A stretch of 55,371 nt of DNA from a virus (IMGVR_UViG_3300025133_000132:1-55371), one strand, 5' to 3'. Positions 761 through 34,119 are shown, counted from the first letter of the stretch. Made by a program: numbers and translations. Notes: generated by a model not told the origin, from the letters alone.

Positions 761-3139
761 ATGCCTACGACTCAGCTTGGCTACGACGTGGCCGATCCCC
801 GTTCCTTCGACACGGGTGCTGACCGACAGCAGGGCGGGACGACCCCCCTGGGTGTCGCCGGTGGCCTGGTCCAGGGACTCACGTCTCCGATCTCGAACCG
901 GATGGACCCGGAGCTCGAGGCTCAGATCCGCGCGAAGTACATCCAGCTGTACAACGAGATCAGCGTCGAGGAGGAGCGGTCCCGCCGGGAGACGGTGGAG
1001 ACCTGGGGCTCGGTGAGCGCCAGCATCCTCTCGGCGGAGGCCAACATCCTGGCGGCTGTCGCTGAGGGGGCGAAGGCCTCGGCGATGAACAACCAGGCGA
1101 AGGCCGACGCCATGCGCCTCATGGAGGACATGACCAAGGCGGCCTCGGAGATGAAGTACTACGAGCCGGACAGGCAGACCTTCGAGCGGTTCGCCTCGGA
1201 GCTCCAGCTCATGGAGGCGGCGATCCAGTCGAAGATGTCGAGCGCCGACTACGGCACGGGCGTCTCTCCGATGGACGACCTCGACACGGCATACGCGAAG
1301 TGGGAGAACGTGCTGAACAAGACGGATGTACGCGCGCTCAAGCAGGTGACCACCATCGTCACGCATGCGAACGAGCTCTCGGGCGACCCGCAGCTGAAGG
1401 CGGACACCGTCCGGATGGAGTACTTCACGCTCGAGGCAGAGATTCGCCAGGGCTTCGCCATGATGGCGGCGAAGGACGGGATCAGCCTCTCGGAGGCCGA
1501 GGGAGAGCGCCTCACCCAGCAGTACATGGCTCGTCACGTGGCCCCCCAGGTCTGGGGAGACCCGGAGCGCGGGCTCCCTGGGGTCGTCACGGACGAAGAG
1601 CGGACGATGGCGGACCAGCGCCGCGCGCAGGCGGTCAGCGACTACGAGGGCTACCTGGCCCGGCTGGACGCCATGAGTGCGGGCCTGCCCCGCGAGTACG
1701 TGGACGAGGCCCGCCTCGCCCTCCGCCAGGCACAGTCCATCGTCGCCGGTGGGCCGGAGGTCTTCGCGGACATCACCTCGCGGATGCCCAGCCCCGAGGG
1801 GACGCGGAAGACGAAGGCGATGATCGAGCATGAGCTGGCGAAGCTGGGTGCTGACCCGCCGGATCCGCTCGTGGCTGCCAAGCGGGAGATCGTCCAGGTC
1901 CCGGGCTTCGACGTGTGGATGCAGGCGATGGGGTTCACGAACGTGACCCGCGCCATGCTCTACGCCGGCAACCACCCGTACGAGTTCAAGGAGGCCGTGA
2001 AGTCGTACGTCATGGCGAAGCAGGGCTCCCTGCCGGAGTCGGTCACCACCCCCGGCGGCATGCGCGAGCACCTGCGTGAGAAGGGTCGCCAGGACGGCAT
2101 GGGCTTCTTCATGACCCCCCTGGGTCGGGCGGTCTCGACCTTCACCGGGCGGCGTCGCTTCGGGGGGGACCTGAGCGACAAGCTCCAGGAGGTCCGGATG
2201 CGGCTCGAGGAGCACGAGCCGAAGACCGAGCTCGGAGCTGGGCTGAAGGAGCGGTTCGGAGACATCCTCGGGCGACCGGACAAGCTGCCTGAGCGCAGCT
2301 TCCGCCCCGAGGACGAGGATGACCTGACGGTGGATGAGATCGAGGAGGATGTCGCCTGGCGGACGCGGCTGGATGAGCTGAAGAAGGAGCCGGGCGGAGA
2401 GGAGCTGGTCCAGCCGGGCGAGACCACTCTTCCCGCTGGCTTCCGTGATGTTCAGGGGGTTGGTGGGTACGTCTACCGACAGCACTCCGACGGCTCGGTC
2501 CAGCTGGTGGGCAACCCGTCCGGGACGGCTACCGCTGACCGCCCCATCTCCGTGAGCTCTCCAACGGCGCTGGCCGCCATCCAGACCGAGATCGGCGTCT
2601 ACCCCGCGACCCAGGTCGAAACGGCTCCTGGGGGGCCTGGAGACGGTCCCATCACGCCCCTGGATGAGGACCCCCACATCCCGGTGGTCCGGGTGAACCC
2701 GCCCCCGGGGAAGGAGGGGAAGTCCTACACCATCGTGAAGCTGAACGCTGCGGCTGGAGGCTGGACCCTCAAGGTCTTCGACGACGACTTCCAGATCCAG
2801 GTGATGGACGCTCCCGGCTTCGACGACGAAGTGGGGAAGGCGTACGGCATCGGCACGCACGCGCACCAGGCGCTCATGCGTGACGTGCAGCACAGCAGCG
2901 AAGCGGGCGTGGGCGTCACCCCCAAGGTGGACCGCTCCGAAGAGCCTGCTGCGGAGCCGAAGCCCGAGCCGACGGCTGCTGCGAAGAAGCCCGAGCCGAA
3001 GAAGCGGGGGCCTGTGGTGGACCCGAACAAGGCCATCGCTGCGGGCTTCCCCAGGGATGACAGCGCGTACATGGACGTGCCCGGGGCAGACAAGCGGTCG
3101 CAGACCTACTACCCGGAGAAGAAGACCACCACGGGGTAG
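761..3139 (+). CDS. Putative internal virion/ejection protein (792 aa)
   Basis: AGGAG RBS, strong GC3 codon bias, middle gene of a small-medium-giant triad after the tail genes. Confidence 0.6.
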   Translation: MPTTQLGYDVADPRSFDTGADRQQGGTTPLGVAGGLVQGLTSPISNRMDPELEAQIRAKYIQLYNEISVEEERSRRETVETWGSVSASILSAEANILAAVAEGAKASAMNNQAKADAMRLMEDMTKAASEMKYYEPDRQTFERFASELQLMEAAIQSKMSSADYGTGVSPMDDLDTAYAKWENVLNKTDVRALKQVTTIVTHANELSGDPQLKADTVRMEYFTLEAEIRQGFAMMAAKDGISLSEAEGERLTQQYMARHVAPQVWGDPERGLPGVVTDEERTMADQRRAQAVSDYEGYLARLDAMSAGLPREYVDEARLALRQAQSIVAGGPEVFADITSRMPSPEGTRKTKAMIEHELAKLGADPPDPLVAAKREIVQVPGFDVWMQAMGFTNVTRAMLYAGNHPYEFKEAVKSYVMAKQGSLPESVTTPGGMREHLREKGRQDGMGFFMTPLGRAVSTFTGRRRFGGDLSDKLQEVRMRLEEHEPKTELGAGLKERFGDILGRPDKLPERSFRPEDEDDLTVDEIEEDVAWRTRLDELKKEPGGEELVQPGETTLPAGFRDVQGVGGYVYRQHSDGSVQLVGNPSGTATADRPISVSSPTALAAIQTEIGVYPATQVETAPGGPGDGPITPLDEDPHIPVVRVNPPPGKEGKSYTIVKLNAAAGGWTLKVFDDDFQIQVMDAPGFDDEVGKAYGIGTHAHQALMRDVQHSSEAGVGVTPKVDRSEEPAAEPKPEPTAAAKKPEPKKRGPVVDPNKAIAAGFPRDDSAYMDVPGADKRSQTYYPEKKTTTG

Positions 3140-9100: not shown

Positions 9101-10855
9101 ACGGCGCTCAACACCTGGTGGAAGACCCGGGTCACCGTGATGTCGGTCGCGTTCTCGATGCGAAACGCGATGTCGAACGTGATGTCGAACATCTTCGACC
9201 TCGGCGGAGGGGCGCTGAACCCCGTCACGAACACGAAGGGGGCCATCCTCAGCCAGGCCGTGATGTTCGCGGAGAAGTACGGCTCGATCTCGGAGGCTGC
9301 CGCGACCCTCGCGAAGCCTCTCCCTGCGGAGTACCTGAAGAGCATCCCCATCTACGAGCAGGCGGGCGCGAAGGCCCGGCACCTCGCCGCCCAGAAGCAC
9401 TTCAAGTTCCTCTTCGAGAAGATGTCCAAGTTCATCGGGGAGGGCTCCTGGCTCGAGGAGGGCGTGAAGCTGGGGGATGGGATGCCCCGGACCCTGGACG
9501 AAGCCATCAACGTGATGCGGGACAACGGGGTCACGAGCCAGGCGTACACCCAGTTCGTGGACGTGGCGAAGACGGAGCGCCACCTCATGGACGCCATCAT
9601 GTACGGCACCGGCTTCAGCGAGCGGGTGGCTCGAGGCATGGGGATGGTCGAGGACGCGGTCATCGTGGCTCTGCCGGCGATGATGACGGCGACGGGCGGG
9701 CTCCCGCTCATCATCGGGCTCCCGAAGAAGTTCGGTGGGCAGGTGGTGGCACGGTCCATCGAGAACCAGGCCCGCATCGTCAACTTCATCGGGAACATGA
9801 AGCGGTCCCGCTCCGTCGGTACGGCGGCCGAGCACGTTCAGAAGTTCCTGTTCAACTACGGGGACCTCTCGGCGGTCCAGAAGTCGATCCTCCGCCTCGT
9901 CTTCCCGTTCTTCACGTGGAACCAGAAGAACCTGCAGCTCCAGATGGAGCTCATGCAGAAGAGCCCGGTGCTGTACAGCCAGTTCTGGCGGATCCTCATG
10001 GAGGACGGACCTCGGGTGGTCGAGGCCTTCAATGCGCAGCAGGCCGATCGTCCCTACGCCCCGCCGCAGCCCGGCACGATGCGGGAACAGTCGAAGGTGG
10101 AGGCCCACCGGATGCACCAGCTCCGTGTGCCCATGCCCTTCATGGACGACACCTTCATCACGGGGCTCGGGCTCCCCCAGGAGGCCTTCGTCGAGAAGAT
10201 GGGGCTCATCATGGGGCTCATCGATCCGGACAACTGGGGAGGGGCTCGAGAGTACGAGCAGCGCAACCGGAAGCTGCGCCTCATGGGGGAGGTCCACTTC
10301 CTCGCGCGCTTCATCGCGGAGACGATGCTCGACCACCACACGCACTACGACGTGCCCATCGAAGAGCTCACGAACGGAAGGCTCATCGCCCAGAACCTGG
10401 CCCCGCTCGGCTACTTCGGGCCGGTCGGCCAGATGATGCAGGTGTACCTCGCGGACCGGCTGGGGCTGCAGGTGTCCGGCGAGTGGGACCACAAGACCGG
10501 GATGTACGGACCGACTCCCAGGATCAGTGGACGGGCGAACCACGTGTACGGCTCGCTCCCCTGGTCCCGTGTCATCCGGGATGCAGCGGCGATGACGAAC
10601 GTGTATGCCGTGTCCGCCATCGCGAACCCCGTCCGAGCTCGGCAGCTCGGGTTCGAGGGGGCGTACGAGGAGGTCCCGATGTGGATCCGCGTGCTGGATG
10701 CGCTCTCGGGGATCCAGGTCGTTCAGCACGACCCCGCTCTTCAGGACGCTCTGCGTAAGATGCACCTGCGCGAGGCTCGTACGAAGAACATGAAGCAGCG
10801 CGGAGCCTTGCAAGAGGCTGACCTCGACTACATGAGCAAGGACCCAACACGATGA
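3143..10855 (+). CDS. Giant internal virion / large polyvalent-type protein with an ART-like domain (2570 aa)
   Basis: Long codon-biased ORF; central GKPLVLYHGT...GIFFATDPVVAAKFA...GYDG...YAVFSPEQVRS motif set resembles ART-PolyVal; C-terminal KFLFNYGDLS...VFPFFTWNQKN resembles C-termini of large phage ejection proteins. Confidence 0.7.
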   Translation: MATSEELAEMLGEGLKNVKPPKDEAEKQAAFGSGDSIPSAPPGAQSEVGFAIPTGLWVTPTGEGPGGGDLLPEREPFATEIASKNFSAARNSATRAQTEVLAAQVHTGDYGNIYSPEAYMEASEPGMLEQLYRGFEPFDNARRALWMTYYGVGQVLPDTREGGVDASMSISEVWNTSRGTGVGDATAWIIGQVGAKALESEVNDTFGDVGGQVVAEFAKPEKTSALQGVDPNQVYAQMATDFYTALAEGDLAERAWNEQDIEAFWFYGLGSGDMDRKGQGEVGPLWTEVFGRERAPHPRGVHIWDAVMTKDEALAIYETTDDPALRNFALMLSSNVGRELSGASLEVAIDPLWLFGPAKGAETVATGGKTYTVSRPLLEAAGALEKLPAGGVSRSVVEMRELVLKSINGISTAEETSKARKVLLTGAEQAEDAAARALYAADVARDAAGGLKGENAVAEASRVLNEQAILIQHAHDAAKASGQHDKVLTHLRTMRRIEEDLVKVGTNASEAAGFLTKRAKEQSGLARAMSDHAEALRRVLYLGSNELPGHAGSGALLVEKGTFSWHIPFSKKTHYLLKPGTAKTIKSLLPEPVLAKTGQVADMLEPLTSAAIHAKLEKEAKSLGVTGKEAEAFLSNTEKFVLAAEKFGGWTSVYPKWAWTEMNRWFGSRFFQPLVQTVRTEAEASLLGIRGAKVAGLPGLNRWIATLRKAQPEVWDNYNAAVTAYFNRIDSLEGSMRVDMERLVGEAKRALAIRKRTAKEGLISTRRSLADDTAALRAKRYLSEPGKVGTKEDLLGYIARDREKIARFEAILAKDYGVNDILLEAGAHIEAGSGLRNVYPELWPYFQMAEELTWKYRDLTGKERGHVANAMANMARFAEGNPEKHVFFQEEFIKRMDLIEEVSLHKTAVIEQTRRAATQELSRITAARRLFTGTKRKQLIETLEVLRGRVLGQPIAKVEMGTVKAIVLEVFGGDKQAAHVVMRDAAITMKDNNGARALLELANLLESDIVAIEKVREAAPGQKGTAAAVRMAIAKHLDRLDTKHAELQKVFLEGVGDKVVVIGDKVLTTGMPADALKLILEGEARGALARAKTLVGDSEWGAFYSWWKSKSIQGLAPGGEPHAWTQASDALKRAALLSRASKKAEDMESAVGVIAKVKKTKKLADRASTRKQVETLHKKAPEGTLMGKDGKPLVLYHGTPYPMTGEFKVGEGGIFFATDPVVAAKFAGTQTKRGIKLIGGKTRKGASPNITPVTISPKKLFDPRDEKATKALLASIKHGLPHEEALVRIVAGDYRVIESFDFQRALKAAGYDGYMSRQAYAAGGKASQAFLKPKAAKGINSWNYAVFSPEQVRSAILPLSEVKKTTSVKTIPGQTTVRARPSFMEEVPGSRGRDLALRLPAGLEAERAASTAKEARLTLAGIGALTEDTFLSERLRRTIVGAKTDEQALGLLKRALFRTVTVWGDPDVPKHPLVERYIQRLAEGLLPKLRDGDPQGVTAVLKASRKAHTEAVKAAKSSVKSLAAKSEKLAASKASQLEEVFKTQADEMAAGVLETTPRIPLREGMERERLPLPEDLSDGKAWAALADWETDMWKEFRVITNGLNDRERLMVAFSTLSELPQVLGQKQMKNIEAMYPSAMGQRLGDVPEGLEKTIGEMRRMISGYEDLYTKHGMHFMKSPEDMLRVWGVTSYVPHLATEESLLSAGGALSHVGVIATGNKTAASRPGVEAALAMKMDARKLRQIDGTIAEINAMKRDLSLVMTLDPLAVMARYGQANKAISAKEMVLTLMRGGVIRAVGAEPIPGEGRMKAMAEVAAEQDMVPLLGKRIVALEDEILFSGDRAAWEGAGVHGPELMLSLRQTMKGDKPGLFSNWFEEIPELRALRKVEDFYTELRVREYVRGEELTDVTALRAQGLSWKEIATHVNQRMQQVDPTLAALKLEPAALKQFFEDGHEAWRLYVPRVVVQSMDDIFGQMKLQDSKLYKGATALNTWWKTRVTVMSVAFSMRNAMSNVMSNIFDLGGGALNPVTNTKGAILSQAVMFAEKYGSISEAAATLAKPLPAEYLKSIPIYEQAGAKARHLAAQKHFKFLFEKMSKFIGEGSWLEEGVKLGDGMPRTLDEAINVMRDNGVTSQAYTQFVDVAKTERHLMDAIMYGTGFSERVARGMGMVEDAVIVALPAMMTATGGLPLIIGLPKKFGGQVVARSIENQARIVNFIGNMKRSRSVGTAAEHVQKFLFNYGDLSAVQKSILRLVFPFFTWNQKNLQLQMELMQKSPVLYSQFWRILMEDGPRVVEAFNAQQADRPYAPPQPGTMREQSKVEAHRMHQLRVPMPFMDDTFITGLGLPQEAFVEKMGLIMGLIDPDNWGGAREYEQRNRKLRLMGEVHFLARFIAETMLDHHTHYDVPIEELTNGRLIAQNLAPLGYFGPVGQMMQVYLADRLGLQVSGEWDHKTGMYGPTPRISGRANHVYGSLPWSRVIRDAAAMTNVYAVSAIANPVRARQLGFEGAYEEVPMWIRVLDALSGIQVVQHDPALQDALRKMHLREARTKNMKQRGALQEADLDYMSKDPTR

Positions 10856-11325
10856 ACCCCGTCCACGTCGGCCTCTACATCATCCTCTTCGTCATCGTGG
10901 TCGGCCTCGCCGTCACGAACCCCAAGCTGAAAGGCTTCATGCCCACCAGGAAGATCCCCATGCGCGAACGCCTCACCGCTCTCTTCTCCCGCAAGACCCA
11001 GTCCGAGCGCATCGCCGCTCGCATCAAGCGTCGTGCCCGCTTCCAGGAGATCGGCTCGAAGGTGCTCGAGTTCGGCCAGGACGTGAGGGCGAAGTTCGAC
11101 AACGTGAACCCCGAGGAGCGGGTCGCCATCGAGAAGGAGATGAGCGAGTTCGTGGACGAGTCTCGGGACGCTGCCCAGGCGATCCTCACCATCTCGCGCA
11201 AGCAGAAGGCCGGGAAGATCGACGCCATCTCCGCCGCCATCGCCATCCGCGAGGTGGTCGAGGCCGCCCGTGAGGGTGCGGATGTCATCCGCGTGACCAC
11301 CGAAGCGATCGCTTCCTCGGACTGA
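10852..11325 (+). CDS. Membrane protein (N-terminal TM helix, basic/coiled cytoplasmic part)
   Basis: ATGA overlap with the giant gene; hydrophobic VGLYIILFVIVVGLAV segment. Confidence 0.7.
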   Translation: MNPVHVGLYIILFVIVVGLAVTNPKLKGFMPTRKIPMRERLTALFSRKTQSERIAARIKRRARFQEIGSKVLEFGQDVRAKFDNVNPEERVAIEKEMSEFVDESRDAAQAILTISRKQKAGKIDAISAAIAIREVVEAAREGADVIRVTTEAIASSD

Positions 11326-11334
11326 GGCTCCCCC

Positions 11335-12144
11335 ATGCGCGTCGTGGTGATGGTCGATGACGACCCGGACCAGGCAGTCCTCATCGAGCACACCCTCTCC
11401 GCCTCGGGGCACCAGCTCCTGGTCTACGACGACCTGGACAAGTGCATCGAGCACCTGAAGTCAGGGGAGATCGACGAGCCCGGGGCGATGCTCCTGGACC
11501 TGGGGCTTCCCAGGTACCGGGGGACGCAGTCCCTCGAGCGCATCATCGCGACCTCGCCCTCCTTCCCTGTGATCGTCTTCAGCGGGAACGAGAGGGAGGG
11601 GCTGGCCTCGGACTGTCTTCGCCTGGGGGCCACCGAAGTGGTTCGCAAGCGAGAGCTGCACCGGGTGTCCGAGGCGATCGAGAACGCGCAGGACCGCTGG
11701 ACCTACGTCGAGGAGAGAGATCCGCTCGTCGCCCTGGCTCGTAGGGTGAGGCGACTCGAGCTCGCAGTGCACCGACGGGGGGACGCCACGGCGGAGACCC
11801 TGGTCGCCCTGACAGACGTGGTCCGGGAGCTGCCCGCCGAGATGGCGCTGGCAGAAGAGACGGAGGAGCTTCCGCCTCCGACGCCGCCCCCGACGCCGGG
11901 GCTCACCCTGAGCCAGGCGTTTGCGAGCCTGGTGTCGGACTCGAAGAAGTACGCGACCCCGATGGTGGGGCTTGCGATCGGGGGGGCAACCCTGACCCTG
12001 GCTGGCGCGTTCGGCGCGATCCTTTGGTGGGTCCTCGGGACGGCTGGCATCGAGAAGCCGCCCGAGGCGAACCACGAGCTGCTCGTTCCGGAGCCTGCCG
12101 CCCTTCCCCTGGAGGCTCCGGATGATGAAGCCCCGCCCGAGTGA
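11335..12144 (+). CDS. Response-regulator receiver (REC) domain protein with a C-terminal TM helix
   Basis: VVMVDDD acidic pocket, MLLDLGLP phosphoacceptor Asp, PVIVFSG Ser and EVVRK Lys all present; hydrophobic GLAIGGATLTLAGAFGAILWWVLG near the C-terminus. Confidence 0.85.
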   Translation: MRVVVMVDDDPDQAVLIEHTLSASGHQLLVYDDLDKCIEHLKSGEIDEPGAMLLDLGLPRYRGTQSLERIIATSPSFPVIVFSGNEREGLASDCLRLGATEVVRKRELHRVSEAIENAQDRWTYVEERDPLVALARRVRRLELAVHRRGDATAETLVALTDVVRELPAEMALAEETEELPPPTPPPTPGLTLSQAFASLVSDSKKYATPMVGLAIGGATLTLAGAFGAILWWVLGTAGIEKPPEANHELLVPEPAALPLEAPDDEAPPE

Positions 12145-12275
12145 GACCCGCCTTGCCGCAGCCCTTCGCAAGCTGGCCGGCACAACGAGCGACATCGAGC
12201 AGGTGTCTGACCCCGCCCTGGTCGTGGCCCGTCGCTACGAGAAGGGAGACCGGCGGCCTTGCAGGGACGAGGAGG

Positions 12276-13946
12276 TCAGGGAGTCGCCGCGAGAGAGTCC
12301 AGCAGCTCCAGACGACGCTGCTGCATCGTGAAGCGGACCCCGTTCACCTGGCTGCCCAGGCTCCCCTCGATGTAGCGGAGCTCCAGCCGGGTGCAGTACT
12401 CCCGGACGATGTCCCGGATCTCCCCGGCTCCGTGCCGGCTCCGCTCCGCCATCAGTGCCCGTAGGCTCCGAGCTGCCCACGGGGGGAGGGAGCTGAAGAG
12501 CCCATAGCAGGGGGCCTCCTGCATCATGGACATCACGATGGTGCGCTCTTCGGGCTCGAGCCACTCGGGCCGGAGCTGCTCCCGCACGACCCGGTCCACT
12601 CGCTGCTTGTGGTGGGCCAGGCCCCAGATCACGGACTGGCACAAGGGGTCCAGGGTCCGGATCCTCTCCCGGGCAGGGGCGAGCTCTCGCCCACCGCACA
12701 TGCGAGCGAGCACCCGAGCATCCACAGAGAGGGTCCTGGCGGCCCGCTGAAGGCCTTCCGAACGTCCAACCCCACGGAGAGGGCGGAGGAAGGGGAGGAC
12801 GGCTTCAGCAGCAGCGTGACGCCCCTGGGGGGTGAAGGGGTAGCGGCGAGACACCCACCCGATGACCTCGGGGAGGAGGGGCTCGGCCTGGGAGACCTTC
12901 TCGGAGAGGCTCGCAGCACCGTGCTTCAGCACCAGCTCGTCGGGATCCAGGGAGTCGAGAGGTACCCGGTAGACCTGGACCCCCGCCTTCAGGAAGCGGG
13001 GCAGGTCCTTCTCCATCGAGAGGCGACCCGCCTTGTCCGGGTCCTTCGCCTCGTACACGACGTTCGTCAGGCGGGAGATGCGTGCGATGTGCTCGTCCGT
13101 CAGTGCCGTCCCGCAGGCTGCCACGGTCTCCCCGTGCCCGGCGGCGTGCATCGCCATCACGTCCGTGTAGCCCTCGACCAGGATGATCCGCTTCGTCTTG
13201 CGGATGGAGCGGAGGGCTTCGCTCAGCCCATACAGCAGCTTGCTCTTCTGGTAGAGCGGGGTCTCGGGAGTGTTGAGGTACTTGGGCTTCACCTCCGGGG
13301 ACGTGGATCGACCGGCAAACCCGACCACGCGCCCCCTGTCATCCCGGATCGGGAAGACCAGCCGGCCACGGAAGAAGTCATAGTACCGACCCGTCCGCTC
13401 CGACCGTCCCAACACCCCTGCCTCGTGAGCGGCCTTCAGCTCGACACGCCGGGAGGTGAGGAAGCGGCACAGCCCATCCCATTCGTCGGGGGCATAGCCG
13501 AGCTCCCACAGCTCCACGCTGGCGTCGAGTCCCCGCTGCCGCAGGTAGTCCTGCGCCTTGTTCACGTGCTGCCGGTAGTACACGTGAGCGGCGGAACATA
13601 CCTCGAGGAGGCCTGACCGCAGGACGTGCCTGGTCCGAACCTGGGGGGCTCCGACGACCACCGGAATCCCGGCCTCGTCAGCAACCTCCTCGATGGCTGC
13701 AGGGAAGTCCAGCCCGCTCAGCTGCTGGACGAAATCGAAGATGTCTCCGCCCCAGCCACAGCCGAAGCAGTGGCAGAAGCCCTTGTCGGGGACGACGTAG
13801 AAGGACGGGGTCCTCTCGGAATGGAAGGGGCAGCAGCCCTTGAGCTCGCCGCCACCACCGTCTACGAGGGACACGTGCCTGCCGACCACCTGGGTCAGAA
13901 GGGAACCGTCCTGCTTGAGCTGGTTCAGAACCGCCTGGTCATACAC
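12276..13946 (-). CDS. dnaG: DNA primase (CHC2 zinc finger + TOPRIM)
   Basis: CPFHSERTPSF...CHCFGC zinc finger; FRGRLVFPI, GFAGR, PKYLNTPET, LVEGYTDV and DPDKAG TOPRIM motifs. Confidence 0.95.
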   Translation of the reverse strand: MYDQAVLNQLKQDGSLLTQVVGRHVSLVDGGGGELKGCCPFHSERTPSFYVVPDKGFCHCFGCGWGGDIFDFVQQLSGLDFPAAIEEVADEAGIPVVVGAPQVRTRHVLRSGLLEVCSAAHVYYRQHVNKAQDYLRQRGLDASVELWELGYAPDEWDGLCRFLTSRRVELKAAHEAGVLGRSERTGRYYDFFRGRLVFPIRDDRGRVVGFAGRSTSPEVKPKYLNTPETPLYQKSKLLYGLSEALRSIRKTKRIILVEGYTDVMAMHAAGHGETVAACGTALTDEHIARISRLTNVVYEAKDPDKAGRLSMEKDLPRFLKAGVQVYRVPLDSLDPDELVLKHGAASLSEKVSQAEPLLPEVIGWVSRRYPFTPQGRHAAAEAVLPFLRPLRGVGRSEGLQRAARTLSVDARVLARMCGGRELAPARERIRTLDPLCQSVIWGLAHHKQRVDRVVREQLRPEWLEPEERTIVMSMMQEAPCYGLFSSLPPWAARSLRALMAERSRHGAGEIRDIVREYCTRLELRYIEGSLGSQVNGVRFTMQQRRLELLDSLAATP

Positions 13947-14009
13947 CCTTGCACCTACACCTGTTGTTCACCGTAGCCGAGCTGGACACACCACGTCCAG
14001 CCGCCTCGT

Positions 14010-14537
14010 TCATCCTGAACTCCCTGTGCGCAGGTGCTTCGCGTACAACGCCATGCAGGCGGCGTCGGCGATGCCTTCGTGGGGCTTGCGGCACCGAGGA
14101 GGGACCAGCGCCAGCAGGGGGAGCGACCGCTGCACCTTCAGGACGGCGCGCATCTTCGTGTCCCCGCCCTCGATGCCGTACAGGATCTTCTTCTGCCACC
14201 GCCTGGGGTGGACCACGTCGAAGGGCAGCTCGACAGCGGTGAGCGCCATCTTCAGCGCGTGGTAGACCCCGCCGTAGTTGAACATGCTGGTCACGCCCTG
14301 GCCGGGCATGGCCTGGGACTTCTCCAGCACGGTGAAGGTCGCCACTCCGTGGTGTTCAGCCTGCGCCTTGATCGACCGGAGCTCGGCCAGCACGCCGGCG
14401 TCGTCGAGGATGTTCTTCGTCTTGCCCTTCTTCCCGATGTTCAGGACGGGCATGCGGACACACACCCTCACCTTGTGGTCGTGGTCGAGAGCGACGATGG
14501 CTCCGCTCACGCCGGGGTCGATGCCGATGTAGATCAT
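14010..14537 (-). CDS. RuvC-like Holliday junction resolvase
   Basis: MIYIGIDPGVSGAI, VLEK, QGVTSMFNYG, P..WQK and EGIADAAC motifs; start reassigned to ATG 14537 (ATGA overlap). Confidence 0.88.
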   Translation of the reverse strand: MIYIGIDPGVSGAIVALDHDHKVRVCVRMPVLNIGKKGKTKNILDDAGVLAELRSIKAQAEHHGVATFTVLEKSQAMPGQGVTSMFNYGGVYHALKMALTAVELPFDVVHPRRWQKKILYGIEGGDTKMRAVLKVQRSLPLLALVPPRCRKPHEGIADAACMALYAKHLRTGSSG

Positions 14538-14911
14538 CCGTACACCTGCGCCTTCTGAAGGTCGTCGATGAAGACCTCGCAGCCCGTCATGTCGAGGAGT
14601 ACGACCTGGCCGACCTCCTTCGGCATGAGGTGGGTCGCGCTGAAGTCGTTCTTCAGGTACTTCTTCAGCCGGGACTCGGTGTTCCACTGGCGGGGGCGGC
14701 AGTCCTTCACCCGACGCATCAGGCGATCGACGCCCTCCTCGACGAGGAAGCCGTTGCTGACCAGGACCAGTGCCTTCCGGTCCGAGCCGGAGCCGCCGCC
14801 GAGGTACGAGACCTTCGCGATCGGCGGCATTGCACCGTGCTCACCGGGGACCAGGAGCTTCTTCGGGTCCCCGGGCGGGGGGATCAGCAGGATCTTATAG
14901 ACCTTCTTCAC
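14534..14911 (-). CDS. Hypothetical protein
   Basis: Overlapping start/stop coupling inside the leftward operon; codon bias. Confidence 0.7.
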   Translation of the reverse strand: MKKVYKILLIPPPGDPKKLLVPGEHGAMPPIAKVSYLGGGSGSDRKALVLVSNGFLVEEGVDRLMRRVKDCRPRQWNTESRLKKYLKNDFSATHLMPKEVGQVVLLDMTGCEVFIDDLQKAQVYG

Positions 14912-15444
14912 GGGGACTCCTCGGGCATGTTCAGTCCGCAGTCATGGCAGAACAGGTCCGCCGTGTCGGCGTCGTAGAAGCTGTTGATGTGGGAGCAGCC
15001 CCCCACATTCACGGCCCGCACCGTCTCGGCCTGCGTGCGCAGCTCGAAGCTGTGGGGTGGGAGGCTCTCGTCCACCGTCACCCTCGGATCCTGCGCGAGC
15101 TTGATGAGGACGAAGCGGACCTCGTCGTTGTGGCAGTGCTTCTCGGCGGACTGGACCACGAGGGGCTGCCCGTCGAGCTCGAACTTGCACTCCGTGATCC
15201 CCATGACGGGCTCCTTTGTGCTCTCCCACACGGACTGGAGCGCCTCGACCTGGGCCTTCACGACCTCCGCCGTCAGCTCCCGGGCCAGACGGTCGAGCTC
15301 CTCGCTCGCCTCCTCGGGGGTCACGGCCGGGCGCATCGAGAGCAGGCGTGCTCCGATCCGCTCGGTCAGGATGTCGGGGGAGGTCGCGTGCTCCCGAGCC
15401 CAGGCCCGGAAGAAGGCAACCTGGTGCTGCTCGAGCCTACTCAT
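14908..15444 (-). CDS. Hypothetical protein with a C-terminal Cys/His cluster
   Basis: Coupled in the operon; GCSH...FCHDCG at the C-terminus; start could also be 15465. Confidence 0.65.
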   Translation of the reverse strand: MSRLEQHQVAFFRAWAREHATSPDILTERIGARLLSMRPAVTPEEASEELDRLARELTAEVVKAQVEALQSVWESTKEPVMGITECKFELDGQPLVVQSAEKHCHNDEVRFVLIKLAQDPRVTVDESLPPHSFELRTQAETVRAVNVGGCSHINSFYDADTADLFCHDCGLNMPEESP

Positions 15445-15682
15445 CGTCGGGATCCACCGCTTCACGGGGGGTCTCGTGGCGAAGGAGGGCGAACACGCAG
15501 GACTCGGCCCACTTGTTCTCCCCCCCTCGGGAACGGAGCCACCGGAGCAGGCTCTCAGCGTCCAGCTCGGCGATGTCCACGATGTCCACGGAGTCCCAAC
15601 ACTCCCCCCTCAAGGCTCGAACGTAGATCCCGGTCACGAGAGCTTCTCGCTCAGGGTCCACGAGGTACGGCTTCTCACTCAT
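15437..15682 (-). CDS. Hypothetical protein (81 aa)
   Basis: GAGGAG RBS, coupled to its neighbours. Confidence 0.7.
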   Translation of the reverse strand: MSEKPYLVDPEREALVTGIYVRALRGECWDSVDIVDIAELDAESLLRWLRSRGGENKWAESCVFALLRHETPREAVDPDDE

Positions 15683-16061
15683 CTGTCTGCTCCTCGCCTG
15701 GTGTACGCAGCCACGAGCTGTCCCAGGGGTCGGTGTGTTCCGGCTCAGCCACCGGGGGCTTGGGCAGCAACCTGCCCTTGCGTGCTCCGACCACGTCTTC
15801 GTAGATCCACCAGTCGGGTTCCTCGATGCCGAGGAACGTGGACACCTTCGAGCGGGGGGTGGGTCGGAGCCTCCTGCTCTTGTCGCTCAGGATCTTTCCC
15901 GAGGGGACGCACACTCCTCGATGCCACTTCCGAACCGTCTGGACCGAGACCGTCAGGCCCGTCATCCGTCGGAGAGCAACCGCGACAGCGGCGACAGACC
16001 CGAGCTCAGCTACCTTGGCGGCCAGGGCACGCCGAGCTCGGGACTCCCGGGGCTTCGTCAC
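15675..16061 (-). CDS. Putative HTH DNA-binding protein
   Basis: GSVAAVAVALRRMTGLTVSVQTVRKWHRG is Cro/HTH-like; GTGA-coupled start. Confidence 0.5.
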   Translation of the reverse strand: MTKPRESRARRALAAKVAELGSVAAVAVALRRMTGLTVSVQTVRKWHRGVCVPSGKILSDKSRRLRPTPRSKVSTFLGIEEPDWWIYEDVVGARKGRLLPKPPVAEPEHTDPWDSSWLRTPGEEQTDE

Positions 16062-16300
16062 CTTCGAGTCTCGAGGGGGTGGCCCCCTGGCGGGAGCTCC
16101 CACCAGGACACCGGGTACCGGTGCTCGATGGAGCGGAACTGGACAGTCCCCCGGAGCTCGATGCCCTGGGGTCCCACGCCGAGGAAGATGCGGGTGACGT
16201 GGTCCAGCTCCACGTTCGCCATCGCCCGGGTGACCCGGCGGCGGGAAGCCACCGGGTCCGACGGGAGGACGACGACCTCGAAGGGCGCAGCCTCAGCCAC
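16058..16300 (-). CDS. Hypothetical protein (80 aa)
   Basis: GTG start overlaps the ssb stop; stop overlaps the next start. Confidence 0.55.
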   Translation of the reverse strand: MAEAAPFEVVVLPSDPVASRRRVTRAMANVELDHVTRIFLGVGPQGIELRGTVQFRSIEHRYPVSWWELPPGGHPLETRR

Positions 16301-16839
16301 TAGTACCCCTGGCCCCCGCCCTGCGGCGGCTGCTGGGGGGGAGCCTGCTGCTGCACGGGCTGCTGCTGCACGGGCTGCTGCTGCCACTGCTGCTGGGGCT
16401 GCTGGGGCCAGCCACCCTGGGGCTGCTGCTGGGGAGGCTGCTGCACCGGCGGCTGCCCGTACTGCTGCGGCGGGGGCGGCGGCTGCGGGGCCTGCTGCTG
16501 CGCCGGCTGGGCGTACTGCTGCTGCTGGTGCCCGGCGTCGGGGTCGAGGAACTGGACGCTCGTCGAGATGTCCCGGACGTTCATCGCCGTCTTCCACTTC
16601 TTCGTGCCCTGGCTCTCGTACGAGCGGGTCTCCACGTTGCCGGTGCAGATGACCGACTGCCCCGGGCGGAGCTGCAGGGCGGCGTCCTTCTGCCCCCCGT
16701 AGGCCTCGACATCGTTCTTCGTGAAGAACGTCCGTCCGTTGTAGGACCGCCAGGTCTTCACCTTGAAGCAGACGGCGGCTCCCCGCTCGGTGGGCTGATC
16801 GACGACGATGCCGCCGAACATGCAGTTGTTGATGCTCAT
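16300..16839 (-). CDS. ssb: Single-stranded DNA-binding protein with a Gln/Pro-rich tail
   Basis: SSB OB-fold pattern MSINNCMFGG...LRPGQSVICTGNVETRSYE...KKWKT; long Q/P low-complexity tail. Confidence 0.8.
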   Translation of the reverse strand: MSINNCMFGGIVVDQPTERGAAVCFKVKTWRSYNGRTFFTKNDVEAYGGQKDAALQLRPGQSVICTGNVETRSYESQGTKKWKTAMNVRDISTSVQFLDPDAGHQQQQYAQPAQQQAPQPPPPPQQYGQPPVQQPPQQQPQGGWPQQPQQQWQQQPVQQQPVQQQAPPQQPPQGGGQGY

Positions 16840-16856
16840 GCTCTTCCTCGGTTGGG

Positions 16857-17957
16857 CTATTCAGCCAGTGTCGTGACTTGCGCCACGGTGTGAAACCAGC
16901 CCCGCTTCTCCCCGATCTCTCGGGCGTTGGGCCAGCAGGTGTTCAGGTACGGGCACCAGCTGCAGGGGAACCCCAGCTTCTGGTCCTTGCCCGGCTTCAG
17001 CGCACGCTCGAACTCCTCGAAGTCCTCGCTCAACGCTACCTCTCGGAAGCGGGCGGGGATCTGGCGCTGCACCTGTTCGTCTCGGCGGATCCACTGCCCG
17101 TGGATGGGGGCGAGGCCCCTCCACATCAGGGGGTTGTCCACCTGGTAGGTCTTCCTCGGCTTGCCGTCCCGCGTGAGGGGCGGCTCGAAGTTCGGGCTGA
17201 TCTCGATGTCCTTCGCGGACACGCCCTTCCCGAACATGAGGACGTAGCTCCACTCCACGTCGATGCCGCGCTGCCGGTGCGCGAGCTGGTACGCCTGCGT
17301 CTGCCAGTAGTAGCCGTCGGGGTTCCCGGTCTTCTTGTCGTACGCCTGCATCCCGTGCTCACGGAACTTCTTGAAGGCGTAGTCCGAGCCGGACTTGATC
17401 TCCAGGACGAAGGGCATGGAGGGGGCGGCGACAGCTTCCTCGGGGGTCTCGCCTCGCATCCAGCGGAGGGTGTTCACCCATCCATCGGGGTGGCCGGGCA
17501 CCCGGAACGAGTCCCAGGGCTCCTTCCCCATGTCCACCTGAACGTGCACCCGCTCCTGCTCAGCGAGGATCCTGGTCACATCCAGCCAGGGGACCTTGTT
17601 GGCGGCCTCGAGCAGCGCCATCGTGGTGATGGCTTCGACAGCATCCCCCATCGCGAAGGCGAGCTTGCCGCTGGCGTCCGTCCGGAACCCGTCCTCGGGT
17701 ACGCCGTGGAATGCCATCGCCATCCGTCGCTGGCACTGCCCCGACCCCGAGAGGCGGAAGGACTGGAGCCCAGACTTCTGTTCCCGGCGCTCGCTGAGCT
17801 GGCGGGTGATCGTCGCCCCCACCACGGCGTCATCGTGCTGGAAATCGGAGCCCGAGTTGTCCTCCAGCCTGGCTTGCACCAGGGCAGCGATGTTCGGCAG
17901 GCACATCTTGTCGGTCACGCGATCCCAGGCCAGGGAATTCCAGGCGTCAGCGTTCAC
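16857..17957 (-). CDS. Cas4-like / PD-(D/E)XK exonuclease
   Basis: N-terminal CQRR, GHPDG, LEIKS, WQTQAY and C-terminal CSWCPYLNTC (four-Cys Fe-S-type arrangement). Confidence 0.85.
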   Translation of the reverse strand: MNADAWNSLAWDRVTDKMCLPNIAALVQARLEDNSGSDFQHDDAVVGATITRQLSERREQKSGLQSFRLSGSGQCQRRMAMAFHGVPEDGFRTDASGKLAFAMGDAVEAITTMALLEAANKVPWLDVTRILAEQERVHVQVDMGKEPWDSFRVPGHPDGWVNTLRWMRGETPEEAVAAPSMPFVLEIKSGSDYAFKKFREHGMQAYDKKTGNPDGYYWQTQAYQLAHRQRGIDVEWSYVLMFGKGVSAKDIEISPNFEPPLTRDGKPRKTYQVDNPLMWRGLAPIHGQWIRRDEQVQRQIPARFREVALSEDFEEFERALKPGKDQKLGFPCSWCPYLNTCWPNAREIGEKRGWFHTVAQVTTLAE

Positions 17958-18250
17958 TGTCCCTCCTCGTCCATGACGTGGATCTTCTCGACCACCACGT
18001 AGCTGCTGACCTCGGGGGAGGGGCCGAACCGTCCGGTGATGGAGACAAGGGTCCCCATCGGGAGATCGAGGAGCTTGCGTCCCTTCTTCCCGAAGCCGAG
18101 CATCCGACAGACCACGTCGTCGGAGTGCTTGCCCTCGGTGGGGTTGCGCAGCTGGGCCTCGTACCTGGCCCCGCTACGCTCGGACGCAGGGAGCTCGCGC
18201 TGCTCCTCGATGAAGCCACAGAACTGCACGGCGTTGGGGAAGTCGGTCAT
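17954..18250 (-). CDS. Small OB-fold protein (SSB/PriB-like)
   Basis: NAVQFCGFI...VCRMLGFGKKGRKLLDLPMGTLVSITGRF...VVVEKIHV matches the strand pattern of SSB/PriB OB folds; no tail. Confidence 0.55.
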   Translation of the reverse strand: MTDFPNAVQFCGFIEEQRELPASERSGARYEAQLRNPTEGKHSDDVVCRMLGFGKKGRKLLDLPMGTLVSITGRFGPSPEVSSYVVVEKIHVMDEEGQ

Positions 18251-18477
18251 CAGAAGGGGACTCCGGCGCAGGCGCGTAGACGGCTGCAGGTCTCAGGGTT
18301 GCGACAGCCCGCCCAGCAGCTCGGGCCCCCGTCCTCCACGTGGTGGATGTTCACGCAGGGGAACCCGTGCTCGCTCAGCGGGGCTGGCTGCATTAGTAGG
18401 GGATCTCGTCCGAGGAGGGGGGCTCGCCACCCGGGGTCCCACCACTTCCGCCAGTCGTAGGGGGTGAGCCCTTCCAA
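18250..18477 (-). CDS. Small Cys/His-rich hypothetical protein
   Basis: Fills the gap and couples (TGATG) to the next gene; overlaps the Rad52-like 3' end by 85 nt. Confidence 0.4.
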   Translation of the reverse strand: MEGLTPYDWRKWWDPGWRAPLLGRDPLLMQPAPLSEHGFPCVNIHHVEDGGPSCWAGCRNPETCSRLRACAGVPF

Positions 18478-19403
18478 GGGTCGCCCCCCTGGGGAGGAGG
18501 GCCCGGGTTCTGCACGGCAGGGGTGCCCTCCTCGGTCCCGCCCAGGGAGAGGACGTACTCGCCGTACTGGTTCATCTTGTCGAGCATGACGCCCTCGGCC
18601 TCCCAGTCCACGAGCAGGCGCGAGGCGATCTTCAGCTGCATCGTGCTCGCCGAGCTCGGCCGGGCCACCCCGCGCGTGGTCGGAAGGTCGTCCTTCCAGA
18701 CAGCGGAGGCGGCCTCGAAGGCTGCGAGGATGTCCACCGCCTGCCCCTGCGGGACCTGGTTCGGCGGGAGCCAGCCCATCTTCTGGCGGACGATGTCCAC
18801 CCGGGCCATCCGGCGCGCGTGCGGGTCCTCCAGGTGGCGGACCAGGTCCTCGACGGTGAGCAGGTGGACCTGGACCTCACGGATGGACGGGACGATGCAC
18901 CAGCCACCGTTCTTCGGCAGCTTGTAGAGCCGGCACTCCGGCCAGCCGTTCGGCTTCTGTCGGTAGATGGGGCAGAGCGTCTCGCCCAGGTCGTACAGGT
19001 GACGACCCATGCCCCAGGCCGACGCCGCCCGCTTCAGGCAGTCGGACACGCCCGCCTTCCCCTCGTCCAGGGAGGACTGGTTCCCGTGCATCTTGCGCTG
19101 GCCGGCTCCGTCCCACCGCCACACCCAGTGCTTGCGCATCAGGACGGCGATGCCGCCCCGGTAGTACGTGGTCTCGGGACCGGCGATCACCTCGTAGTCC
19201 TGCTGCCAGTTCCACTGCCCGACGACTTCATCGAGTCGCCGCTGGACCGCGCGCAGGTCGAGGTAGCACATGAGCTTGGCGTCGGTGCCGACCTTGCGGT
19301 CCATCCTCCACTCCACCTCCTCGTCGAGGAAGGGGCGGGTGAGCTCGCGCATCACTCGGGCCTGGTTGTTGCCGTCGATGTCGGTGGGTGGGGTACTACT
19401 CAT
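18393..19403 (-). CDS. Rad52/Sak-family single-strand annealing recombinase
   Basis: LTRPF..EVEWR, YLDLRAVQRRLDEVVG..NW, KAGVSDCLKRAASAWGMGRHLYDL; start reassigned to ATG 19403. Confidence 0.9.
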   Translation of the reverse strand: MSSTPPTDIDGNNQARVMRELTRPFLDEEVEWRMDRKVGTDAKLMCYLDLRAVQRRLDEVVGQWNWQQDYEVIAGPETTYYRGGIAVLMRKHWVWRWDGAGQRKMHGNQSSLDEGKAGVSDCLKRAASAWGMGRHLYDLGETLCPIYRQKPNGWPECRLYKLPKNGGWCIVPSIREVQVHLLTVEDLVRHLEDPHARRMARVDIVRQKMGWLPPNQVPQGQAVDILAAFEAASAVWKDDLPTTRGVARPSSASTMQLKIASRLLVDWEAEGVMLDKMNQYGEYVLSLGGTEEGTPAVQNPGPPPQGGDPWKGSPPTTGGSGGTPGGEPPSSDEIPY

Positions 19404-19845
19404 CAGGCGTGCGCTCCCAGGAGAGGACGTTGAGGTTGCTGCTCTCCACCCGCTGGACCTTGCCGGCGGCCTCGAGCAGGTAGAGGTTGTTCGCGGCCCA
19501 GCTGCTGGAGACACCGCAGGAGCGAGCGAGGTTGCTCACCGTCTGGGGCTCGTGAGCTGCCAGGAACCCGAGGATGCTGTCGCACACCACGGACTTCACG
19601 GCCTCGTAGTCGGAGGCGGGCTTGATGCTGGGGACCAGCTCGAAGACGAGAGCCTTCCCCCCTCCTGTACTCACCCGAACAGGACGAGGACGGATCCATC
19701 CGCGAGCCCGGTCCAGCCGGACCAGCTGCTCGACCCGGGACTTCGTCTTGCCCGTCTTCTCAGACAGGTAGGCGAGGGTGCGGGGACGGAGAGAGAGCTC
19801 CCGGATGATGATGTCCGCAGCGGTGTTGCGTGGGGTCCGCGTCAC
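19396..19845 (-). CDS. Tandem winged-HTH DNA-binding protein
   Basis: Two wHTH-like units (TLAYLSEKTGKTKSRVEQLV; TVSNLARSCGVSSSWAANNLYLLEAAGKV); GTGA-coupled start. Confidence 0.6.
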   Translation of the reverse strand: MTRTPRNTAADIIIRELSLRPRTLAYLSEKTGKTKSRVEQLVRLDRARGWIRPRPVRVSTGGGKALVFELVPSIKPASDYEAVKSVVCDSILGFLAAHEPQTVSNLARSCGVSSSWAANNLYLLEAAGKVQRVESSNLNVLSWERTPDE

Positions 19846-20099
19846 GAGCCCAGCTCCGACAAGGGGGCCACGGTCCAGTGACCACCGACCCACGCCCCGC
19901 TCGGTGCCTGCTGCGTGAGCAGGTAGACGGGGACGTAGACGCCGTTCGGCCACGCCCGCTCGGGGTGGGAGAAGCGGAAGAACACTCCGTTCTCGGCGGT
20001 CAGGTTCTTCGTGGGGCCAGCGGGATCGAAGCGCACATCGTGCGTCCCCCACTTCACGAGCGGCAGGTCCCGCATCGCTGTGCCCTGCTGTTCAGGCAT
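19842..20099 (-). CDS. Hypothetical protein (85 aa)
   Basis: GGAG RBS before ATG 20099; first gene after the leftward promoter. Confidence 0.6.
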   Translation of the reverse strand: MPEQQGTAMRDLPLVKWGTHDVRFDPAGPTKNLTAENGVFFRFSHPERAWPNGVYVPVYLLTQQAPSGAWVGGHWTVAPLSELGS

Positions 20100-20143
20100 T
20101 GAAACTCCGGTGTTGACCTTGCCCAACTCGGCGAGGTGAGAGA

Positions 20144-20172
20144 AAACTACCTGGGCAGATGGAGGGTGTCAA
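20144..20172 (-). promoter_or_regulatory. Sigma70-type promoter for the recombination/primase operon
   Basis: Minus strand TTGACA-17 bp-TAGTTT. Confidence 0.7.
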
Positions 20173-20175
20173 CCT

Positions 20176-20676
20176 GTGGCAACAAAGAAAAAGACTCAGC
20201 ACTTCCACCCGAGAGGGAACTACCTCCAGCGATGTGCCGGACGAGACCCTGCTGCCTGCCTTGCCCTGGCGGCATGGAAGGAGGTCCTCGGAGAGGAGCA
20301 CGGGATCGAGGAAGCTCACGACACGAACAACCGGGTCCGGGCTCGGGTCCTCAGCCAGCTCCACTCCATCGGCAGACTCCCCCGCCCCCGATTGCTCCAG
20401 CTCCTCCGGCACTACATGCACCAGACGGAGGAGGACGGGACGCTCCCAACCCTCGCCCGCTTCCGCAACCTCCTCCCCGAGCTCGAGCTCGAGTACCCCT
20501 GGGAGCCACGAGGTTCGCTTCTGAGACGTTCCCCACGTGAACTGGTACTCGGAGAGGACGCAGTCGTCGGGACGGGCCTGGTGGGGGCCAAGCCCGTCCT
20601 CATCACCGAGCACCGAGACAGCCGAGGGATGTTCGTCAAGCGAAGCGACGTGCGCGGGCCCACTCCGGGTCGATGA
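20176..20676 (+). CDS. Hypothetical protein, counter-oriented inside the replication region
   Basis: GGAGG RBS upstream of GTG; best protein-like ORF in the gap between dnaB and the operon. Confidence 0.55.
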   Translation: MATKKKTQHFHPRGNYLQRCAGRDPAACLALAAWKEVLGEEHGIEEAHDTNNRVRARVLSQLHSIGRLPRPRLLQLLRHYMHQTEEDGTLPTLARFRNLLPELELEYPWEPRGSLLRRSPRELVLGEDAVVGTGLVGAKPVLITEHRDSRGMFVKRSDVRGPTPGR

Positions 20677-27366: not shown

Positions 27367-28028
27367 GTGCGCCCTTCAGCCTGCGTGTTCGGTGCCCCGC
27401 CTGCAGCAACATGTGCCCGGTCGCCACCCGTGATGAGCTCGCTGGAGACGCCGGCATCCAGTGGTCCGAGGACTACCTGGATGCCGAGTGGGCGGGCTCC
27501 ATGTTTGTGTATTGGGATGTTCAGAACCCCGAGCGAGGGGAGCACGGCGGAGTGCTCCTCGTGTGCGAGTGTGGGCACGTGTACGAGGAAGGCGAGCTGC
27601 TCCTCAAGCGGCTGGACCGGGGTCAGGTCCTCGACTTGCCGCCCATGCACGGACACGTGGGACGTGGGCTCGCCATCGACGAGGCCGCCATCCTCGATGC
27701 AGTCCTGCGCCTGCACCCGCAGGCGCGTATCGAGCAGCTCAGCTTCACGTACCGGTCCCCGACGCCTCCCCATTACGTCGCGACGAACAAGATCGATGCC
27801 GACGTGCTCGTACACTGGTCGTACCCGCACGAGGACGTGAACGTGAACGGAGGGATCCCGGTCGGGTCCTGGCACCGGGTGACCCGGGCTGTGATCTGCC
27901 GCACCGGCGCGTCGTACCTGGACGGCTCCCCGGTCAAGCTCTACGAGGCGGAGGACCTGCCGCTGAACGCACGTGACGCGCGCTACCTGTACGAGCGGAC
28001 CGTGCACCTGCGTGCGGAGCTCGGATGA
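27363..28028 (+). CDS. Zinc-ribbon-containing hypothetical protein
   Basis: RCPAC...VCECGH; ATGA-coupled. Confidence 0.65.
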   Translation: MSAPFSLRVRCPACSNMCPVATRDELAGDAGIQWSEDYLDAEWAGSMFVYWDVQNPERGEHGGVLLVCECGHVYEEGELLLKRLDRGQVLDLPPMHGHVGRGLAIDEAAILDAVLRLHPQARIEQLSFTYRSPTPPHYVATNKIDADVLVHWSYPHEDVNVNGGIPVGSWHRVTRAVICRTGASYLDGSPVKLYEAEDLPLNARDARYLYERTVHLRAELG

Positions 28029-28180
28029 AGCTGGCCTACGCCGTCGTCGCACTCATCTACGTGGCGTGCGTGGGTGGTGCGTTCACGTACCTGGGTCCGC
28101 GCGATGCGTTGTGCACGTGGATCGCCATCTCGTTCGGCTACCTCATGCTCTTCGCTGGACAGGAAGAGGACACCCTCTGA
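28025..28180 (+). CDS. Small two-TM membrane protein (51 aa, below the ORF-track cutoff)
   Basis: Own translation MKLAYAVVALIYVACVGGAFTYLGPRDALCTWIAISFGYLMLFAGQEEDTL; ATGA-coupled, GGAG RBS. Confidence 0.6.
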   Translation: MKLAYAVVALIYVACVGGAFTYLGPRDALCTWIAISFGYLMLFAGQEEDTL

Positions 28181-32269: not shown

Positions 32270-32299
32270 TTGACAGTAGTAGAGAAGGGTGGATAGGCT
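32270..32299 (+). promoter_or_regulatory. Putative sigma70-type promoter
   Basis: TTGACA-18 bp-TAGGCT; the -35 sits in a TGTCA-N5-TGACA palindrome. Confidence 0.55.
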
Positions 32300-32324
32300 C
32301 CTCTCGGTTTCAACCGAGGTGTGT

Positions 32325-34045: not shown

Positions 34046-34119
34046 TCTTGCCCGGCGTGGCGTCGCGCCCGTCACTCCAGCGGCGTCACGCTCGGGCACC
34101 TTTCAACAGCGGAGTAGTA

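Follow-up and report, generated by a model that had tools for sequence, protein, structure and literature searches.

The window, by which we mean the whole 55,371 bp of virus record IMGVR_UViG_3300025133_000132, carries a gene that joins a receiver (REC) domain to a predicted transmembrane (TM) helix, and this gene is found where a block of virion genes ends. The gene, termed here REC-TM, starts 9 nt past the stop codon of a shorter gene, the partner, and has GAGG upstream; the partner ATG overlaps the stop codon of a giant virion gene (ATGA). The block of + strand virion genes starts at the terminase, passes the record ends and finishes with REC-TM. An earlier reading made from the sequence alone (the sequence-only reading) had the pair closing the virion operon, and the gene order bears this out: REC-TM and its partner are the final + strand genes, at the convergent junction of the virion and replication modules, and the gene that faces them encodes a primase (Table 1). 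The G+C content of REC-TM is 0.87 at third codon positions (GC3) vs 0.46 at second positions (GC2), a strong coding signal, and its GC3 is like that of the genome at large. The partner gene has values of 0.91 and 0.41, respectively.

The receiver is well defined. The Pfam family Response_reg (PF00072) matches residues 4–106 with 53.9 bits vs a cut-off of 30.2 (E 2.4e-14), and a six-frame search of the genome finds the same segment (56.1 bits) as its sole REC. The active-site residues are all present: the acidic cluster D8-D9-D10, the phospho-acceptor D55 within LLDLGLP, S83 and K105. Across the 36 rows of an alignment with the nearest relatives, the phospho-acceptor column has D in 36/36, column 9 has D and column 105 has K in 35 sequences each, column 83 has 24 T and 11 S, and column 8 has 22 E and 13 D. 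These columns also align with the Bacillus subtilis PhoP receiver 1mvo. An AlphaFold2 (AF2) model made with an alignment has a block-wise predicted local distance difference test (pLDDT) score of 91–98 over residues 1–130, and its strands (3–7, 27–31, 51–54, 79–83 and 101–104) and the helices between them, at pLDDT >90, form the (beta-alpha)5 fold. Foldseek superimposes the model on solved receivers with a target-normalised TM-score of 0.82–0.87 and a root-mean-square deviation of ~2 A. The sequence-only reading was right on both counts here, the identity of the domain and the presence of the canonical phosphorylation residues, and the sequence points to a genuine and apparently phosphorylatable receiver.

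What follows the receiver resembles no known output module. AF2 predicts helices at residues 105–128, 130–148 and 153–164 (block pLDDT 77–97), and Pfam returns 0 families for residues 106–200 even at E <= 10; NCBIfam gives sub-threshold matches to the REC part of the protein only. Beyond a proline-rich stretch lies one hydrophobic segment, with its best 19-residue window at 211–229 (score 1.74); AF2 places a low-confidence helix at 222–236 of this region. Thus the helical linker and single TM helix, without an output domain, are as the sequence-only reading described them. By the positive-inside rule, the cytoplasmic flank of a TM helix is enriched in basic residues. K204 and K205 stand just before the helix, and the tail after it has one K/R vs nine D/E (net charge -8), which together suggest that the REC is cytoplasmic and the tail outside. 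This topology is predicted from charge bias.

The combination of a receiver and a C-terminal membrane anchor is rare. With the REC-TM protein as query, HMMER run exhaustively over 1.84 billion representative proteins gave 9803 proteins at E <= 1e-3, among which the query alone fell below 1e-30; the best other matches are 28–39% identical and cover the REC part only. When hydrophobic segments were checked in the 149 non-self matches listed, a single protein, P0005, had both a REC and a C-terminal TM anchor. Scans with the two-row alignment of the REC-TM protein and P0005 over 185,579 species genomes and over JGI metagenomes yielded 52 and 65 generic REC loci, respectively, and none of these 117 has a REC with a C-terminal TM anchor. 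One of them (L007) was considered as a family member and set aside, as its hydrophobic stretch is internal to a 366-amino acid protein. IMG/VR scans with the REC-TM protein and with P0005 found no family member; the one IMG/VR locus reached with the two-row alignment (L006) encodes an ordinary 258-amino acid response regulator with a long C-terminal extension and bacterial-looking neighbours, and it was rejected. GenBank phages contain no match to the REC-TM protein at E <= 1e-3. The REC part alone, at E <= 1, finds 14 GenBank phage records, none covering 80% of the query, and blastn of positions 10000–13000 and tblastn of either the REC protein or the C-terminal 899 residues of the giant protein return nothing from GenBank phages. 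Word-index protein searches with the REC-TM protein and the partner show no relative beyond the two proteins or a 99% variant.

P0005 is 287 amino acids long, forms a singleton cluster, is not in IMG/VR and comes from a 44,092-bp assembly contig. It aligns with the REC-TM protein end-to-end, at 33% identity by MAFFT and 35% by phmmer. It keeps the active-site residues, parts of the linker, the proline-rich stretch (P180, P182, P184–186 and P188 are common to both), a hydrophobic segment near the C-terminus (score 2.15) and a similar acidic tail, which ends in both proteins in P-x-D-E-x-P-P with P262, D264, E265, P267 and P268 invariant. The sequence of the TM helix and its pattern of small residues are not kept. 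Because P0005 retains linker, proline-rich stretch, TM helix and tail, the whole architecture looks constrained. A further relative, P0072 (169 amino acids, 1,123-bp contig), has the REC and linker at 38–39% identity and may be cut short. The acidic pair, phospho-Asp, T/S and Lys are kept in all three proteins, which argues for selection on phospho-chemistry. The linker was also considered as a His-phosphotransfer module, given that H146 is common to P0005; this was dropped, as there is no Hpt or HisKA match and only two sequences can be compared.

If the receiver is phosphorylated, where would the phosphoryl group come from? Six-frame searches of the genome at E <= 1 gave 0 matches for HATPase_c (PF02518), HisKA (PF00512), HisKA_3 (PF07730) and Hpt (PF01627), whereas control genomes gave matches in these searches. 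The absence of a kinase from the phage, noted already in the sequence-only reading, is therefore confirmed for these four families; a two-component or phosphorelay set within one genome is not what is seen here, and any phosphoryl donor must be the host's. With no output domain and no phage kinase, a decoy receiver becomes the most likely role, and the TM helix would place the REC on the cytoplasmic face, where sensor kinases sit. We propose, with a rough probability of 0.4, that the REC-TM protein is a lineage-specific accessory in which a REC, tethered to the membrane and without output, docks on a membrane-bound histidine kinase of the host or drains phosphate from it. The gene would be transcribed and translated together with the late virion genes. 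Its product, a catalytically competent REC, would reside in the cytoplasm, tied to the inner membrane by the C-terminal TM helix with the short acidic tail outside. There it could act as a membrane-localised decoy for a membrane-bound histidine kinase or phosphorelay protein of the host: once docked, it would either drain phosphoryl groups, as a phosphate sink, or merely occupy its target. The result would be the rewiring of one host two-component pathway late in infection.

A related and more specific proposal is that, by plugging into a host sensor kinase, the tethered REC lets the phage shut down an envelope or defence response, or else sense the signalling state of the host and set the timing of a late membrane event (lysis or exclusion, for example). 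We regard this as doubtful.

Several points weigh against a decoy. Phosphorylation of the REC, its putative host target and its effect are all presumed from sequence. Expression with the late genes is deduced from gene position only, and no RNA runs are among the listed public runs that hold phage sequence. P0005, the protein that makes the architecture look constrained, need not be of phage origin. In the REC itself, the switch position is V102 where 28/36 aligned sequences have Y or F and six have V, so that an aromatic switch is lacking, and K105 is followed by R106 with no Lys-Pro. An aromatic switch residue and Lys-Pro are common in receivers, although not strictly defining; nevertheless, with V102 and without Lys-Pro, the REC could act atypically. 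To these points must be added the absence of the domain from related phages, discussed below.

The departures at V102 and R106 raise the question of whether the protein is a pseudo-receiver, i.e. a dimerisation or docking module that works independently of phosphorylation and serves as membrane anchor or adaptor for a host or phage protein. The long helical extension of alpha-5 would suit such a role, as extensions of this type often mediate receiver dimerisation, and so would the lack of an encoded cognate kinase. However, pseudo-receivers usually lose some of the phosphorylation residues, whereas all five residues of the phospho-chemistry are kept in the REC-TM protein, P0005 and P0072 despite identities of 33–39%. 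A pseudo-receiver is therefore distinctly unlikely.

How widespread is the gene among related phages? The C-terminal 500 residues of the giant virion protein retrieve nine IMG/VR records at 33–47% identity. None of the nine, three of which are rated at least 90% complete, contains a REC domain at E <= 0.01; the closest relatives of the giant protein, P0155 and P0156 (62% identity over the C-terminal 671 residues), followed by P0157–P0160 (42–47%), stand outside the records scanned. A REC is thus not a conserved strategy of the lineage, and REC-TM appears from these comparisons to have been added in this phage or in its immediate kin only. Two of the records, L002 and L003, have the layout of giant gene, small TM protein (103 or 98 amino acids) and convergent primase, with no REC; the other seven have different genes after the giant gene. 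The small proteins in the L002 and L003 slot show no BLASTP alignment with the partner. They have weak matches to PHROGs of unknown function only, and candidate assignments to XhlA (18.6 vs 34.7 bits) or DUF6674 were discarded as sub-threshold coiled-coil and composition noise.

The absence of a REC from nine of nine related records might instead mean that REC-TM is a passenger: part of a bacterial response-regulator or hybrid-kinase gene that the phage captured, that was joined to a hydrophobic tail by accident and that plays no part in infection. Module junctions are the usual place for accessory genes, and REC-TM is found at such a typical insertion point. Moreover, the nearest REC matches are multi-domain bacterial signalling proteins (28–35% identity), and in other contigs there is a junction within the part of the gene that encodes the TM helix (see below). 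Against this, codon composition is fully ameliorated, as the GC3 of REC-TM shows, and the gene is tightly coupled to those upstream. The reading frame is intact and identical in contigs of four public runs from three studies, which show 0 differing letters and bridge the giant gene to the partner, the partner to REC-TM and REC-TM to the primase (two possible source samples were left out of this comparison). In addition, P0005 keeps the full architecture and the active-site residues at 33% identity. On balance, a passenger without function seems quite improbable. The sequence-only reading considered that its proposal would fail if the closest homologs were ordinary chromosomal genes and the gene did not recur in related phages. 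The lack of recurrence is indeed what the nine records show; the chromosomal part is not, as there is no close homolog and the matches noted above are confined to the REC.

The junction itself was seen in two further runs, X4 and X5, where one contig each fits the window only from position 11998 on, with at least 255 unlike letters before it. Position 11998 is codon 222 of REC-TM, within the TM-coding part. A 65-amino acid protein (P0003), encoded on a 1,808-bp contig, shares 98% identity with residues 221–269 only, and its N-terminus is unrelated. The break inside the TM-coding part thus recurs across separate data sets; its cause could be mosaicism, a repeat shared between sequences, or faulty assembly.

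The partner gene encodes a single-TM basic protein upstream of REC-TM, as described in the sequence-only reading. Its TM segment spans residues 4–22 (hydropathy 2.56), and residues 23–65 contain 14 K/R vs two D/E. With this basic stretch right after the TM segment, the C-terminal part of the partner is most probably cytoplasmic. A single-sequence AF2 model has helices at residues 37–46, 50–83, 87–119, 125–141 and 145–156, with a mean pLDDT of 67. No family in Pfam, PHROGs, NCBIfam or PADLOC matches the partner; hits to SEN1_N (Pfam, 10.5 bits) and RuvX (NCBIfam, 15.4 bits) were dismissed as noise, and the Atlas has no usable feature match, its structure rows being under the naming bar. The sole relative in the word-index protein search is a 99% identical variant. 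Co-folding of the two proteins scored 0.00 in two runs, made without controls and with a partner fold that is itself uncertain, and it has no bearing on binding either way. Of the two-gene membrane module that had been suggested, adjacency and tight spacing stand; there is no other basis for it, with a partner that has no family and whose relative is a near-identical variant. The partner is perhaps best viewed, from its sequence, as a separate N-terminally anchored, basic, helical cytoplasmic protein, and joint action with REC-TM is hypothetical.

Another possibility is a phospho-switch in which the membrane part is the output: the REC would control oligomerisation of the TM helix or exposure of the tail, and so gate lysis timing in a holin/antiholin-like manner, superinfection exclusion or a block to DNA entry, possibly with the neighbouring protein. 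The gene is the last of the late block, after an ejection-type giant protein and a small TM protein, and its TM helix is rich in small residues. L002 and L003 also have a small, N-terminally anchored coiled-coil protein in the same slot, and the amidase-like gene of the phage has no TM protein beside it, which leaves the holin unassigned. However, this amidase-like gene is ~26 kb away from the pair and below its Pfam cut-off, and its matches to PHROG amidases are at E ~0.06–0.09. No holin family in PHROGs or Pfam matches the REC-TM protein, whether taken whole or as residues 185–269, and no holin, spanin or exclusion family matches either of the two proteins. PADLOC models of anti-phage defence also give 0 families for both at E <= 0.1. 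No ORF (open reading frame) listed for 10852–12144 has the signal peptide or lipobox looked for in a spanin, and the soluble parts of both proteins are probably cytoplasmic, which argues against a spanin pair. In addition, a 208-residue cytoplasmic domain is atypical for holins, the small-residue pattern is not retained in P0005, the partner has no sequence similarity to the L002 and L003 slot proteins, and the phage has a more ordinary holin candidate elsewhere. A phospho-gated membrane event is accordingly unlikely, and the link to lysis raised in the sequence-only reading finds no support in the distance and weakness of the amidase, the missing holin and spanin matches, or the orientation of the soluble parts.

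Other small TM proteins are encoded at 28025–28180, 32289–32546, 34048–34332 and 34559–34729, and none has a holin family match. The 85-amino acid product of 32289–32546 has two hydrophobic segments and makes the most conventional candidate for a holin. The phage's lysis genes seem to be dispersed or to have gone unrecognised.

Stand-alone receivers of the CheY, Spo0F and DivK type, some of which are phosphate sinks, are soluble, chromosomally encoded proteins of ~120 amino acids. The REC-TM protein resembles them in having the REC fold, the full set of phosphorylation residues and no enzymatic or DNA-binding output. It differs in being phage-encoded and in its ~100-residue helical and proline-rich extension, C-terminal TM helix and acidic tail, and hence is not a single-domain receiver. 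There may also be a likeness to phosphate-sink CheY proteins and to Myxococcus RomR, which has a REC, a proline-rich region and an acidic tail.

Phages are known to exploit two-component signalling, through binding sites for host regulators or small kinase-binding proteins. PIT4 of the lytic Pseudomonas phage LSL4 is described as acting on host two-component systems by binding histidine-kinase domains (PMC10714779). PIT4 is an early gene product, and the abstract of that paper mentions no receiver domain, whereas REC-TM has the fold of a kinase substrate, is predicted to be membrane-anchored and belongs to the late block. Exploitation of host response-regulator pathways has been argued for CtrA, where the work concerns host CtrA sites in phages and no phage REC (PMC9437464). 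Literature searches returned no paper on phage-encoded or membrane-anchored response regulators or on phage-borne receivers (supplementary files aside).

Receiver folds in viruses are nonetheless already known. PHROGs 731, 5982 and 37855, all of unknown function, match the REC part only. BFVD gives 23 matches at E <= 1e-3, a few of them response-regulator entries of tailed phages (uncultured tailed phages and an Alteromonas phage), which like REC-TM have a receiver fold in a virus, and many of them hybrid kinases of giant eukaryotic viruses. For these catalogued viral REC proteins no C-terminal TM anchor has been demonstrated here, in contrast to REC-TM, and what is new is a phage receiver anchored to the membrane. 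Such a receiver would represent a different and very direct route into host signalling, in which the kinase's own substrate fold is used as decoy or sensor. If this is true, REC-TM offers a simple means to learn which host pathway is important late in infection, and a small natural module with which a receiver can be tethered to the membrane. Together with P0005 it would then found a small family of viral decoys in signalling, built in the order REC, linker, TM helix and acidic tail. If the decoy is not confirmed, the gene simply adds to the orphan accessory genes of an uncultured marine phage lineage.

Features of the locus and of the surrounding genome are collected in Table 1, with the gene layout taken from simple gene calling by codon-position G+C content.

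Table 1. Features of the window (positions counted from its first letter) and of the corresponding slot in two related records.
Feature	Position	Strand	Basis or remark
REC-TM gene, 269 amino acids: receiver, helical linker, proline-rich stretch, one TM helix, acidic tail	11335–12144	+	
Receiver (REC) domain, residues 4–106	11344–11652	+	Pfam, alignment, AF2 model, Foldseek
Helical linker, residues 105–164, three helices	11647–11826	+	AF2; no known domain
Proline-rich stretch LPPPTPPPTP, residues 179–188	11869–11898	+	Translation
TM helix, residues ~209–237, Gly/Ala-rich	11959–12045	+	Hydropathy
Acidic proline-rich tail, 32 residues, probably outside the cytoplasm	12046–12141	+	Charge
Partner gene, 157 amino acids	10852–11325	+	N-terminal TM helix, basic juxtamembrane stretch, all-helical C-terminal part
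Virion (ejection-type, polyvalent) protein gene, 2570 amino acids	3143–10855	+	ORF; directly upstream of the partner gene
Virion-block ORFs past the record ends	112–750 and 761–3139	+	Gene call
Large terminase, weakly recognisable	41393–43030	+	Very weak PHROG match
Portal	43036–44865	+	Very weak PHROG match
Major head protein	47192–48301	+	Very weak PHROG match
DnaG-type primase, convergent, first gene of the replication/recombination block	12276–13946	-	Pfam DNAG_N 127 bits, Zn_ribbon_DnaG 86 bits, Toprim
Amidase-like gene, sole cell-wall-hydrolase candidate	38584–39186		Amidase_2 24.4 bits vs cut-off 26
Slot protein of related records, ~100 amino acids, N-terminal TM helix and coiled coil, conserved	L002 7715–8026; L003 1149–1445		

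The record is rated 100% complete, has no end repeats and has a G+C content of ~66% throughout. Most of the public runs in which the sequence occurs bear the label marine metagenome and the others carry coded organisms, which lends no support to the myxobacterial host that the sequence-only reading had considered. There is no tyrosine integrase in the genome (serine recombinases were not searched for), which fits a lytic lifestyle, and the phage is a marine, high-GC, tailed and probably lytic one. The window has no Rfam families or tRNAs. The intergenic region 12140–12280 has no significant fold (z = 0.16) and no sigma-70-like promoter, and the one terminator-like site near the pair is at chance level.

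The lineage is a poorly charted one, as family matches are weak or absent: the terminase, portal and major head protein are recognised at PHROG E-values of 8.5e-7 to 5.6e-4 only, 6/10 scanned late proteins have no match, and 18/20 proteins of the middle region have no Pfam family. Behind the primase, the minus-strand block (12276–22069) has genes for an SSB-like protein (23.5 bits, below cut-off), for a Rad52/22-like protein (35.8 bits) and for a DnaB helicase (105.8 bits), and the order and orientation of this replication/recombination block relative to the giant gene are as in L002 and L003. The giant virion protein belongs to a family with 61 relatives of 1540–4276 amino acids, on contigs of ~6–71 kb, some from ocean surveys. 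It has one hydrophobic segment (residues 2173–2191) and a weak PHROG tail-fibre match, and a near-identical cluster bears a precomputed match to PF18760. Two genes upstream of the large terminase, positions 40469–41023 encode a 184-amino acid protein with a helix-turn-helix of the sigma-70 region-4 type (28 bits), a possible small terminase subunit or late regulator.

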